DNA from: a virus
Length of the DNA stretch: 25,976 bases
UHGV virus genome: UHGV-1612078
Reading direction: 5' to 3' (one strand)
Part shown: in pieces, positions 2,534-4,973 of the stretch
Numbering within the stretch: the stretch's first letter is position 1
How the letters are laid out: every line of letters begins with the position of its first letter
Program-made: the position numbers and the translations under genes
Notes under the pieces: model-generated
The model's input: the letters and a program-made list of their open reading frames with translations, nothing else
Databases searched by the model: none
What the model was told of the DNA's origin: nothing

Positions 2534-3127
2534 ATGAACACACTGAAGAAAATTGTTGAGTTTATTCGCACTAAACTTGGTTCTGCTATGGCTAAAAATC
2601 TATCTGTCGAAGAACAGTATACTGCTGCAGCAGCAAAACTACTTGATAAAATTAAAGATCTAAAAACTGCTTCTGTTAAATCTATTAACGAAGAAAAACG
2701 TATTCGTGAACTTGTTATCGAAAAGAATCGACAGGCCGAATCAAAAGAGCGTGAAATTCGTAAACTTCTTTCCGAAGGCCAAGATGTAACAATGCATGCT
2801 AAACTCGGTTTACTATATCGTCGAACAGCTGAGCAGTTGACTACTAAGGCTGACGGTTATGCTGAAATGCGAATTGAAATCGCCAAGAAAGTAGTTGAGT
2901 TAGATGATGCTCGTCAAGAACTTGCGGTTAAATTGGAATATATCCGTGAAACTCGTGCAGCAAATGCCCTTGGAATTAGTACTGCTGATGATGTAGTTGA
3001 AATTGCAGCACTGACTAAGGTTGATATTGAAGATACCCTTACTCGAGTTGAAACCTTTAACGGTAATATTTCTGGGGTTGAAACTACCTCTGCCGATGTT
3101 CAGGAATACATTAATTCTCTGAAATAA
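2534..3127 (+). CDS. coiled-coil protein, possible PspA/IM30-like
   Basis: SD aagga then ATG. 197-aa helical, charge-rich sequence whose residue pattern resembles the PspA/Vipp1 helical core (e.g. [16 protein letters not shown] against recalled PspA LSETRARQQAL). Judged by eye only. Confidence 0.55.
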
Positions 3128-3129
3128 TG

Positions 3130-3152
3130 ATAAGGGGCTTCGGCCCCTTATA
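3130..3152 (+). terminator. stem-loop, possible terminator or stabiliser
   Basis: aaggggc-TTCG-gcccctt hairpin with UUCG tetraloop. The downstream T-run is weak. Confidence 0.4.
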
Positions 3153-3168
3153 CTTGGAGTAAATAGGA

Positions 3169-3783
3169 ATGAAAATGAAAATGCAAAGTGATTTCAATTC
3201 AATGTTTGAAGAGTTCCAAAGACAGGTTGATGTTCCAGACCAATTACTAAATGCTCTTAAACGCATGGCAGAAGGACGTAATTACTATTGGGGGTCTTCA
3301 TATGAAACTGATGAAAGCCTTTCCGGAAGATTTTCTAGAGGTAAAAAGTCTTTAATACGTCCTGGAATACTCATTAACAGTATTGAATCAATTCATTCAT
3401 TGACGTGTGATTTTGATGTTGAATTTACTGATTTCATTTCTCCTGAATGGACGGTTTGTTATTTAAACGACGATTTTGATTATCTCGGTGTTTATAGTTT
3501 AAGTGACGCATGGTTTAAACGTAATTTACAAAAGTCAAATTTATTTTATATTGATACTACTGTAAAATTTCAGGGCAAGAAATATTTCTTTACTCTTATA
3601 GTTGATTCTGAAACGAAGCATGAAAATAAACGTATTCTTAGTAAAAAGAATATCTTAACTATTGTTGATGATCTTTTTGATAAATTTGTAGAAAATCCCA
3701 ATTTTGAAAGTGATTTATTACTAGAAAAATTTGTTAAGGAATGTAGAGAATATGTCAAAACCATCACTATACCTTCCAAGTAA
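3169..3783 (+). CDS. hypothetical protein (204 aa)
   Basis: ORF with SD ggag upstream. C-terminus EKFVKECREYVK shares the junction motif seen in the following tandem genes. Confidence 0.6.
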   Translation: MKMKMQSDFNSMFEEFQRQVDVPDQLLNALKRMAEGRNYYWGSSYETDESLSGRFSRGKKSLIRPGILINSIESIHSLTCDFDVEFTDFISPEWTVCYLNDDFDYLGVYSLSDAWFKRNLQKSNLFYIDTTVKFQGKKYFFTLIVDSETKHENKRILSKKNILTIVDDLFDKFVENPNFESDLLLEKFVKECREYVKTITIPSK

Positions 3784-4144
3784 ACCTGTGAAGTATGAAC
3801 CAAAGCGTCAGCTAATTCCTACTGATATATTAATAGGTCCTGTGACAGCTATATCATTTGTAATTCTATTGATTATTGGAGGTGTTTTAGATGTTATGAC
3901 TGATATTGATTCTGGCGTAATATTTCTGTTAGTATTAATTCTTCCATTAGTAGTTCCATTTTTATTAGTACCTATAAATTGGGTAGGATACTGGTATCAA
4001 GGAAGACACTATCGTAAACGTGTACGTGATTGGAAAGCCCAGTGCAAAAAGATTAAAAAAGAACATCAGCTTAAACTTGATATGTATGAATTTAATGAAA
4101 TTATGAAATTTGTTAAGGAATCACGATGCAAAAGCCAAAATTAA
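3752..4144 (+). CDS. small membrane protein, paralog 1 of tandem array
   Basis: Two hydrophobic segments (AISFVILLIIGGVL; FLLVLILPLVVPFLLV). Start ATG 3752 after aagga. C-terminal motif FVKESRCK. Confidence 0.55.
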   Translation: MSKPSLYLPSKPVKYEPKRQLIPTDILIGPVTAISFVILLIIGGVLDVMTDIDSGVIFLLVLILPLVVPFLLVPINWVGYWYQGRHYRKRVRDWKAQCKKIKKEHQLKLDMYEFNEIMKFVKESRCKSQN

Positions 4145-4488
4145 ATAAAGTCAAATATTCGTTTCCTGAGGCACTATTAATTCTTGCTGTATCAGTATTT
4201 GCAGCTCTTGCGGGTAGTCTTATTGGATTGTTAATTGACTGTTTTATTTTAAACATTGACGGCACAGTAATTATAACAGAGGTTTGGAGTGAACTTCGTT
4301 ATACTATAGCGATTTCATTATTTTCATTCTTTGGTACTATGTTATATTTTCATTATGATAATTTTAAAATAAATTGGCAAAGAAAAAAAGATTACAAAAT
4401 ACAATTAAAAGAATATAATAGCTACATGTCTTATATTGAAAAAGAATCAATGGAAGAGTTTGTGAGTAATTGTAGGAAAATCAAATGA
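4126..4488 (+). CDS. small membrane protein, paralog 2
   Basis: Hydrophobic segments (LLILAVSVFAALAGSLIGLLI; ISLFSFFGTMLYF). C-terminal EFVSNCRKIK. SD aagga. Confidence 0.6.
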   Translation: MQKPKLNKVKYSFPEALLILAVSVFAALAGSLIGLLIDCFILNIDGTVIITEVWSELRYTIAISLFSFFGTMLYFHYDNFKINWQRKKDYKIQLKEYNSYMSYIEKESMEEFVSNCRKIK

Positions 4489-4969
4489 TTTTAAAAACTC
4501 GCTGGTATGATTTAGATGATGGGGACGATGGCATTTCAGTTGATAGAGTTGACTGGAATGGTTGTTCCGAAGATATGAAAAATTTGTTGATTAGGGAGTT
4601 TAGAATGGGATATCAAGCAGCTAAGCCATCTACTATAACAGACGATAAATTCGTGTGTATTCAAAACGGTCGTGCTAAGTTAACGAACGCTGAATGGTTT
4701 ACGGATAAGAATATGCTTCTGTGGTATATCATTAGTCTTCCTGTGTCATCATTCGTATTTTACTTCTTTGGAAAAAATCCAATGGACAGAATAGGAGATT
4801 GGGTTCTTTGTACTATATTTGTTAATATTTTGACAGCAGCAATATTATCTGGGATATGGTGTGTGTTCATTGAAATGCCATGGCGTTTACGCAGACAACA
4901 AAAGATTTTTGATGAAAAGAAATATACTCAAAATTTAAATAACTTTATCACTGAATGCAGGAAATTAAA

Positions 4970-4973
<4 letters not shown>
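4485..4973 (+). CDS. small membrane protein, paralog 3
   Basis: N-terminal soluble region then hydrophobic segments. C-terminal [14 protein letters not shown] overlap with the preceding gene. Confidence 0.6.

Follow-up and report, generated by a model that had tools for sequence, protein, structure and literature searches.

A PspA-like protein and neighboring proteins with a shared C-terminal motif in the e.6-e.2 block of T4-like phages

The block of genes e.6, e.5, e.4, e.3 and e.2 of T4-like phages is a viral variant of the arrangement in which a PspA-family protein is accompanied by small membrane partners; its partner family is its own, and these partners share a new tail motif. Our analysis is based on the UHGV virus genome UHGV-1612078 (the window, i.e. 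the whole stretch of 25,976 nucleotides, one strand), in which the block occupies positions 2534-4973. Its first gene, e.6, very probably encodes a homolog of PspA, a divergent member of the PspA/IM30 (Vipp1)/ESCRT-III superfamily; the e.6 family forms a branch that has so far been found only in phages or phage-like contexts. The motif near the ends of the four following proteins is almost certainly a feature of the proteins themselves, and three of them, e.4, e.3 and e.2, are in all likelihood paralogs of one superfamily. As the best explanation – a tentative one, to which we give a little less than an even chance – we propose that e.6-e.2 form a phage Psp-like membrane-maintenance module in which the tail serves as a common docking handle. 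The genes of the block are as follows.

2534-3127, plus strand: e.6, 197 aa, probable divergent phage member of the PspA/IM30 (Vipp1)/ESCRT-III superfamily.
3175-3783 (202 aa), or from the ATG at 3169 (204 aa), plus strand: e.5, soluble; FVKECR encoded at 3730-3747.
3752-4144, plus strand: e.4, 130 aa; hydrophobic segments 26-44 and 55-73, basic tail predicted to be cytoplasmic; FVKESR encoded at 4109-4126.
4126-4488, plus strand: e.3, 120 aa; hydrophobic segments at about 16-38 and at 59-77, the second weaker; FVSNCR encoded at 4459-4476.
4485-4973, plus strand: e.2, 162 aa; soluble N-terminal part of 76 aa, segments 77-95 and 109-131, then the tail; FITECR encoded at 4944-4961.

An original prediction, made from the bare sequence, had described the 197-aa protein as PspA/IM30-like and had placed a tandem array of paralogous membrane proteins behind it. 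All of its open reading frames (ORFs) are present where it had located them, and e.4, e.3 and e.2 do constitute such an array; it had, however, overlooked the soluble, motif-bearing e.5 that lies in between. A megablast search with positions 2400-5500 matched 662 phage records, 498 of them with at least 80% query coverage. The best matches reach 97% identity and all belong to Tequatrovirus-type phages, and by these nucleotide matches the window is assigned to Tequatrovirus (T4-like). The T4 record shows the same gene order on the opposite strand (e.8, e.7, e.6, e.5, e.4, e.3, e.2, nudE, e); together with the megablast matches, it provides the names e.6, e.4, e.3, e.2, nudE and e for the ORFs of the window.

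The homology of e.6 to PspA was assessed at the level of the phage family. A word-indexed search of 5.8 billion proteins revealed 48 clusters of this family, and an exhaustive HMMER profile search of 1.84 billion representatives returned 45 members, nearly all of which are 195-209 residues long, barring fragments. The family is thus small and uniform; it is encoded in 1,100 records of the phage collection. A profile of the close family alone yields weak matches to Vipp1 (E 2-4), which are already in register. When the alignment is extended to 38 sequences (A2, the close family plus divergent members from the HMMER search), the profile matches sll0617, Vipp1 and PspA chains at E 9e-5 to 4e-3, with profile positions 1-146 on chain positions 1-147. 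Furthermore, five family members individually match the Pfam family PspA_IM30 (PF04012; gathering cut-off 33.9 bits). Two of them pass the threshold, namely P0066 (39.0 bits) and P0065 (35.1 bits), and their residues 6-146 align to model positions 2-143. Both are full-length members of the e.6 family: the close e.6 profile recovers them at E 2.5e-20 and 1.3e-21, respectively, and BLASTP aligns P0066 with e.6 of the window over 194 residues with one gap (25% identity, E 1e-13). The beginnings of distant family members, MGILSRI or MSIFQRL, are close to the MGIFSRF of PspA. The description of the 197-aa protein as PspA/IM30-like is therefore borne out by members passing PF04012 and by the profile matches to Vipp1 and PspA chains, as well as by the structural comparison below. 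Some e.6 records carry the label 'host specificity protein'; no family match supporting this label was found in any search.

Some results weigh against the assignment. For e.6 of the window itself, there is no match to PF04012 even at E = 10. More generally, this sequence has no Pfam match, nothing relevant in NCBIfam and no sequence match in the PDB. Finally, the hhalign comparison of A2 with enterobacterial PspA, which gives 65% probability and E 6e-5 over 168 columns from residue 1, relies on a shallow PspA profile (Neff 1.3), as the homolog search for the latter gave only enterobacterial sequences of at least 86% identity. In this alignment the segment TRVETF of e.6 is paired with ARFESF of PspA; the overall identity of e.6 to PspA is about 14%.

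The AlphaFold model of e.6 contains helices at residues 3-20, 25-80, 86-145, 165-175 and 186-196. Confidence, expressed as predicted local distance difference test (pLDDT), is 82-95 for the two hairpin helices (25-80 and 86-145) and below 50 for the N-terminal helix. The hydrophobic moment of the latter is 0.45, compared to 0.42 for residues 2-19 of PspA. According to this model, e.6 is composed of an N-terminal amphipathic helix, a helical hairpin of about 120 residues and two short C-terminal helices. The features that characterize the PspA family, i.e. an amphipathic alpha0 and a long alpha1/alpha2-3 hairpin followed by short alpha4 and alpha5, are hence all predicted for e.6. A Foldseek search of the model against 350,542 PDB chains, a check of the ESCRT-III/PspA fold that the original prediction had proposed, returned Vipp1 in all of the top eight positions (E 1.2e-3 to 2e-2, probability 0.99-1.00); the next match is the archaeal ESCRT-III protein CdvB2.

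The proteins encoded behind e.6 are held together by their tails. The motif reads FVKECR in e.5, FVKESRC in e.4, FVSNCRK in e.3 and FITECRK in e.2, and its consensus, Φ-x-x-F-(I/V)-x-x-(C/S)-R followed by basic residues, corresponds to one face of an amphipathic helix. In the 8,294 translated residues of the window, the strict form F[IV]xxCR would be expected about 0.04 times by chance. Across 49 loci, plus-strand ORFs contain 120 strict matches, all of them at most 30 residues from the C-terminus; over 25 sequence clusters bear the motif. No match is located upstream of e.6 and 116 are located downstream, a restriction seen across 40-odd T4-like loci. In the complete related genome OR780565 (168 kb), the looser form F[IV]xx[CS]R has four C-terminal matches, which are e.5, e.4, e.3 and e.2 only, and one further match deep inside a 521-aa protein. 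The shared C-terminal motif had been noted before for the three membrane proteins; it is real and extends further than was noted, as it includes e.5 and, in its strict form, occurs at C-termini only.

One explanation for such a motif could be a constraint on the DNA, that is, a downstream ribosome-binding site or translational coupling. We rejected this explanation on the basis of 93 unique genes. Among these, Phe is encoded by TTT in 63 and by TTC in 30, Cys by TGT in 45 and by TGC in 48, and Arg by all six codons, while the distance from the motif to the next ATG varies from -32 to +149 nt. The mixed Cys and Arg codons and the variable spacing indicate selection on the amino acids, not on a ribosome-binding site. 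A second candidate, a T4 head-protease site (I/L-x-E) within F-I-T-E, was also discarded, because the fourth motif position is occupied by D, Q, Y, G, M, S, K or N as well in other phages. As far as the sequences indicate, e.5, e.4, e.3 and e.2 all end in a predicted cytoplasmic amphipathic helix that is conserved at the protein level.

The same data bear on the gene junctions, whose likeness the original prediction had taken as a signature of tandem duplication. Described as near-identical, the junctions are in fact only similar (tgtaggaaaatcaaATG versus tgcaggaaattaaaATG, 14 of 17 bases), and the e.4/e.3 junction is different from both. A generic Shine-Dalgarno consensus as the sole cause is ruled out by codon usage and spacing. 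Yet the junctions make a weak argument for duplication, since they reflect a motif selected for its amino acids and not a recent event; the paralogy itself holds, on the evidence of profiles.

Pairwise BLASTP among e.4, e.3 and e.2 gives only marginal results (E 0.009 to 0.11). For this reason, we gathered about 50 loci from diverse T4-like phages, clustered their ORFs and compared the cluster profiles. By hhalign, the pairs e4-e3, e2-e3 and e2-c44 score 90-92%, whereas the highest of 135 control pairs reaches 5.2%. Searches with hidden Markov models (HMMs) point in the same direction: the e.4 model (positions 14-126) matches residues 10-118 of e.3 at 7e-5 and, in the reverse direction, the e.3 model finds e.4 at 3e-4; the model of cluster c44 matches residues 80-160 of e.2 at 5e-5. 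In a local set of 1,056 proteins, such searches connect e.4, e.3 and e.2 with one another and with a dozen further two-segment clusters (E 1e-4 to 1e-8), and the alignments span both hydrophobic segments and the tail (about 100 residues). In e.2, the paralogous region is the C-terminal 100 residues, and there is an extra N-terminal part of 76 residues. Kyte-Doolittle peaks over 17 residues are 2.8 and 3.2 in e.4, 2.6 and 1.5 in e.3, and 1.75 and 2.15 in e.2. The N-termini and C-terminal tails are basic and the connecting loops acidic or neutral, so that both ends are predicted to be cytoplasmic in all three proteins. The three thus have in common two segments, a basic tail with the motif at its end and similarity to one another at the profile level, except that e.4 has Ser in place of Cys and that the second segment of e.3 is weak. 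Reciprocal HMM matches, hhalign against controls and hydropathy hence all agree with the earlier description of the ORFs at 3752, 4126 and 4485 as paralogous small two-segment membrane proteins.

The soluble protein e.5 is always encoded by the gene after e.6, and its motif sits 11 residues before the C-terminus. The e.5 family is very divergent: in an alignment of 18 sequences, the only invariant residues are M1, N98, F186, C190 and R191, and conserved catalytic residues are not found. The protein database assigns the precomputed Pfam family PF26876 to all e.5 homologs; our own searches, in a Pfam copy without PF26876, in NCBIfam and in PDB sequences, gave no match. The structure model has a mean pLDDT of 59.7 and is based on a shallow alignment of close homologs only. 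Small alarmone synthetases were the top Foldseek matches of this model, but with a TM-score of 0.16 and a probability of at most 0.35 this candidate was rejected.

A comparison across T4-like phages shows how stable and how plastic the block is. Motif-bearing e.5 follows e.6 in all groups of T4-like phages that were examined, whose hosts range from Escherichia and Klebsiella to Aeromonas, with the exception of RB43-type phages; Ceceduovirus has the variant motif F-x-x-Y-C-I. The copy number of the array, whose comparison among T4-like genomes had been proposed earlier, is variable: between none and four two-segment genes stand directly after e.5 in the enterobacterial T4-like phages examined. 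Some phages encode further motif-bearing membrane proteins a few kilobases downstream, and in several a dozen unrelated genes lie between the array and lysozyme e.

Far more distant relatives are found on metagenomic phage contigs that carry an e.6-like gene passing PF04012. The ORFs that follow this gene end in I-(I/L/V)-x-x-A-R (2/2 in L050 and 4/4 in L060), as opposed to only 3/34 of the upstream ORFs in distant contigs; these tails were noticed after the fact. The e.6-like genes of such phages are only about 25% identical to e.6. The co-occurrence of a PspA-like gene with these tails suggests an old pairing with tail-tagged neighbors, and I-(I/L/V)-x-x-A-R is possibly an older form of the tail motif. 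The ORFs in question, several of which have one membrane segment, are located as follows.

L050, 5650-6383: ORFs ending in I-(I/L/V)-x-x-A-R.
L060, 4661-6293: ORFs ending in I-(I/L/V)-x-x-A-R.
L059, 4653-5171: ORFs ending in I-(I/L/V)-x-x-A-R.

Cellular PspA systems offer several points of comparison. Like the Psp system of Escherichia coli, the block combines a PspA-family protein of about 200 residues, with N-terminal amphipathic helix and long hairpin, and adjoining genes for small proteins of the inner membrane whose helical tails are predicted to be cytoplasmic; the role to be expected would likewise be a tight, energized inner membrane. In contrast to that system, e.6 is about 25 residues shorter than PspA, about 14% identical to it and itself below the Pfam threshold. 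The phage partners are unrelated to PspB and PspC and have two membrane segments and their own shared motif, and the module is virus-encoded, lacks a PspF-type regulator and stands behind a promoter candidate of T4-early-like type. In the LiaH-LiaI system of Bacillus subtilis, the gene of a small membrane protein also lies beside that of a PspA homolog, suggesting that the polymer is recruited to the membrane. Yet e.4, e.3 and e.2 have no match to the LiaI-LiaF-TM family, which is described with four transmembrane segments (PMC11237479), and in the phage there are several candidate anchors, paralogous to each other, and in addition a soluble protein with the motif, without two-component control. 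Vipp1/IM30 of cyanobacteria and chloroplasts provides the best structural and profile matches of e.6 (Foldseek E 1e-3; hmmsearch E 1e-4, in register from residue 1). Unlike e.6, it has an extra C-terminal helix, measures 260-280 residues and acts alone in thylakoid biogenesis and repair. There may also be a likeness in logic to ESCRT-III, where MIM peptides on the polymer subunits bind MIT domains of an ATPase: in both, a membrane-remodeling polymer from this superfamily would go together with a short helical docking peptide common to several proteins. In the phage, however, the motif is found on neighboring proteins and no ATPase is present.

T4 shuts off host gene expression, so that the infected cell is probably unable to induce its own psp operon. 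A phage PspA-like copy could fill this gap. According to this model, e.6 would assemble at the host inner membrane, on its cytoplasmic side, in the manner of PspA, Vipp1 and LiaH, and would coat or seal the stressed membrane and keep it energized through infection; the stabilized proton-motive force could also delay premature holin triggering. The common tail would dock e.5 and the membrane proteins to a single partner, with e.6 as the most likely one, in analogy to PspB/PspC, LiaI and PspM in cellular PspA systems. Because cellular PspA homologs are typically encoded beside small membrane partners (PMC11237479), e.6 is the most economical candidate for this partner. Out of the roles suggested in the original prediction, i.e. 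membrane stress, lysis timing and superinfection exclusion, homology would favor membrane stress. We consider the chances for and against a role in membrane maintenance to be about equal, whereas binding of the tail to e.6 is possible but somewhat doubtful. The boldest form of the hypothesis, in which T4-type phages own a Psp/ESCRT-III-like machine with an e.6 polymer on the inner membrane and e.5-e.2 plugged into it via a previously undescribed C-terminal docking helix, appears rather unlikely to us; if true, it would represent viral control of membrane integrity after host shut-off, and hence of energy supply, lysis timing or resistance to membrane-attacking defenses.

Some results speak against a Psp-like module. 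The proteins e.4, e.3 and e.2 have no Pfam match that would make them homologs of PspB, PspC or LiaI, and when e.5 is included and NCBIfam is added, there is still no match to the Psp/Lia partner families (PspB, PspC, LiaI-LiaF-TM, PspM); the likeness to these partners is one of position and architecture only. RB43-type phages possess an e.6 relative without motif-bearing neighbors, and the tails in distant phages were, as mentioned, recognized only in retrospect. Moreover, the CRISPRi-ART screen (PMC11879866, supplementary files 8 and 15) rates T4 e.2-e.6 as 'Not Fit', and HIDEN-SEQ (bioRxiv 10.1101/2025.11.20.689424, supplementary file 7) rates them as 'Non-essential'. Since the genes are dispensable in these two laboratory screens, any role must be conditional, and as the dispensability applies to rich laboratory conditions, phenotypes should be sought under membrane stress or in particular hosts.

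What is more challenging is the possibility that the tail binds a partner other than e.6, such as a host protease, a chaperone, a membrane complex or another phage protein. In that case, e.5 and the membrane proteins could be fast-evolving effectors of host takeover, anti-defense or superinfection exclusion, with e.6 merely co-transcribed in a plastic early region. Copy number and sequence of the array vary strongly between phages, as is usual for genes in an arms race; outside the motif, the e.5 family has only one invariant residue; PHROGs places e.2 under moron/host takeover as a membrane protein; and RB43-type phages retain an e.6 relative in the absence of motif proteins. We nevertheless regard this alternative as unlikely, though deserving of attention, because motif genes occur solely downstream of e.6 (0 upstream versus 116 downstream), the C-terminal motif is found nowhere else in the 168-kb genome, and the arrangement of e.6 with motif tails persists in very distant phages. 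No defense or anti-defense family was matched either: PADLOC defense-system models gave 0 families for all five proteins.

Two further alternatives are improbable. According to the first, e.6 mimics PspA and interferes with the host Psp system, either by binding PspF or by co-polymerizing with host PspA in order to block or hijack it. The hairpin of E. coli PspA carries the surfaces for PspF binding and self-assembly, and it is over the hairpin that e.6 aligns with PspA. An identity as low as 14% argues against mimicry, as does the conservation of the family in phages of hosts as unlike as Aeromonas and Escherichia; besides, the shut-off of host transcription by T4 leaves little gain from repressing PspF. 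The second takes the block as mainly a lysis-timing device, whose e.6 and membrane proteins directly modulate holin triggering or lysis inhibition. Its position immediately upstream of nudE and e and the small two-segment membrane proteins are in line with this idea. In Pfam and PHROGs, however, there is no holin, antiholin or spanin match: against PHROGs, the five proteins of the block match only families of unknown function or plain 'membrane protein', with no lysis or superinfection-exclusion family (holin, antiholin, spanin, Imm, Sp), and Pfam likewise returns no family of either kind. The dozen unrelated genes that part the array from e in several phages and the location of the known T4 lysis genes (t, rI and rIII) elsewhere in the genome also disagree with it. 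That the block is nothing special – a generic coiled-coil, unrelated hydrophobic ORFs and junctions made alike by ribosome-binding sites – would fit the marginal pairwise BLASTP results, but is extremely improbable in view of the profile links between e.6 and PspA, the codon statistics of the motif, its genome-wide exclusivity at C-termini and the paralog profiles, which are clean against controls.

No paper linking PspA to e.6 or to T4-like phages was found. In a large survey of PspA systems across Bacteria, Archaea and Eukaryota, the words virus and bacteriophage do not appear (PMC11237479), and neither of the two key papers on PspA evolution mentions phage-encoded members. Although T4 is the best-studied lytic phage, its genes e.2-e.6 are still annotated as hypothetical in the genome-wide screens of 2025, and e.2-e.4 are labeled 'predicted membrane protein' (PMC11879866; bioRxiv 10.1101/2025.11.20.689424). 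A virus-encoded PspA homolog in about 1,100 sequenced phage genomes would demonstrate that phages bring their own protein for membrane repair or remodeling. The block is a concrete entry to the question of how T4-infected cells keep their membrane energized for long, e.g. during lysis inhibition, and the shared tail motif, which is easily mutated, offers a direct route to a possible common binding partner.

The surroundings of e.6 and e.5 include the following signals.

2434-2462, plus strand: promoter-like site TTTACG-17-TATTAT upstream of e.6 (consensus scan, 9/12 matches).
2441-2468, plus strand: 11-bp hairpin in the spacer that separates e.8 from e.6; it overlaps the promoter-like site (RNA fold of 2430-2535: -22.4 kcal/mol, z = -2.8).
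3130-3151, plus strand: 9-bp hairpin with UUCG loop directly 3' of e.6 (RNA fold -15.6 kcal/mol, z = -2.8).
3727-3742 (copy 1, e.5 motif) and 4106-4121 (copy 2, e.4 motif), plus strand: exact 16-nt direct repeat AAATTTGTTAAGGAAT, the sole exact DNA repeat.

The -35 hexamer of the promoter-like site, which is a consensus match only, resembles the T4 early type (GTTTAC) and makes the site a candidate early promoter. The gene e.6 is thus bracketed by two stable hairpins; as the one at 3130-3151 has no U-tract, it is more likely an element of RNA stability or a partial stop than a terminator. An Rfam scan of 1900-5600 detected no RNA family. T4 e.7 is absent from the window, where the spacer between e.8 and e.6 (2433-2533) comprises 100 nt with the 11-bp hairpin and the overlapping T4-early-like promoter candidate, an arrangement presumably reminiscent of the promoter/stem-loop cassettes of T4-type phages. 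The start region of e.5 contains GGAG at 3155-3158, the core sequence of sites cut by the RegB nuclease. For AAATTTGTTA, a likeness to a RegA operator was considered.

Copy 1 of the repeat AAATTTGTTAAGGAAT encodes K-F-V-K-E of the e.5 motif, and the two copies bracket e.4. Recombination between them would delete e.4 and leave a fusion that ends in the motif; the repeat could thus plausibly mediate the loss or duplication of e.4, in agreement with the variable copy number of the array.

The genes from e.5 through nudE overlap or abut, and the start of nudE overlaps the stop of e.2 (ATGA). As had been stated before, the array lies just upstream of nudE and lysozyme e, which is confirmed by Pfam and by the T4 gene order.

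4970-5410 (146 aa), or from 4955, plus strand: nudE (Pfam NUDIX 1.9e-13; T4 annotation).
5448-5942, plus strand: lysozyme e, 164 aa (Pfam Phage_lysozyme 1.5e-13; T4 annotation).

In the T4 reference (NC_000866), e.2 has only 102 aa and represents a compensated frameshift of the 162-aa gene of the window, with small indels at about nt 285-288 and about nt 366, counted within the gene. This frameshift accounts for the 160-nt 'gap' that the T4 annotation shows ahead of nudE; the T4 DNA still encodes the 11-letter C-terminal stretch of the long e.2.

Other T4-like phages encode small soluble proteins in tandem, all of which end in W-(V/I/A)-S-S-S-x-x-C or W-x-x-S-S-C. They make up another family that is recognized by a C-terminal motif and belongs to this plastic region, but they are absent from the window.

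L003, 6862-7884: proteins of the W...S-S...C type.
L004, 7407-7951 and 8265-8450: proteins of the W...S-S...C type.
L007, 6559-7300: proteins of the W...S-S...C type.
L059, 5944-6746: proteins of the W...S-S...C type.

Within the window, the 193-aa ORF at 11474-12055 ends in ...YVSLCRKHWNELTK, with a relaxed tail motif 11 residues before the C-terminus. Furthermore, the 187-aa ORF at 1376-1939 begins with MKTYAEFLTEAA, almost the same start as that of the internal-virion-protein ORF at 6037-6510 (MKTYQEFITEAA; PHROG 3155). These nearly shared starts look like a capsid-targeting sequence, so that the ORF at 1376-1939 may encode a further internal head protein.

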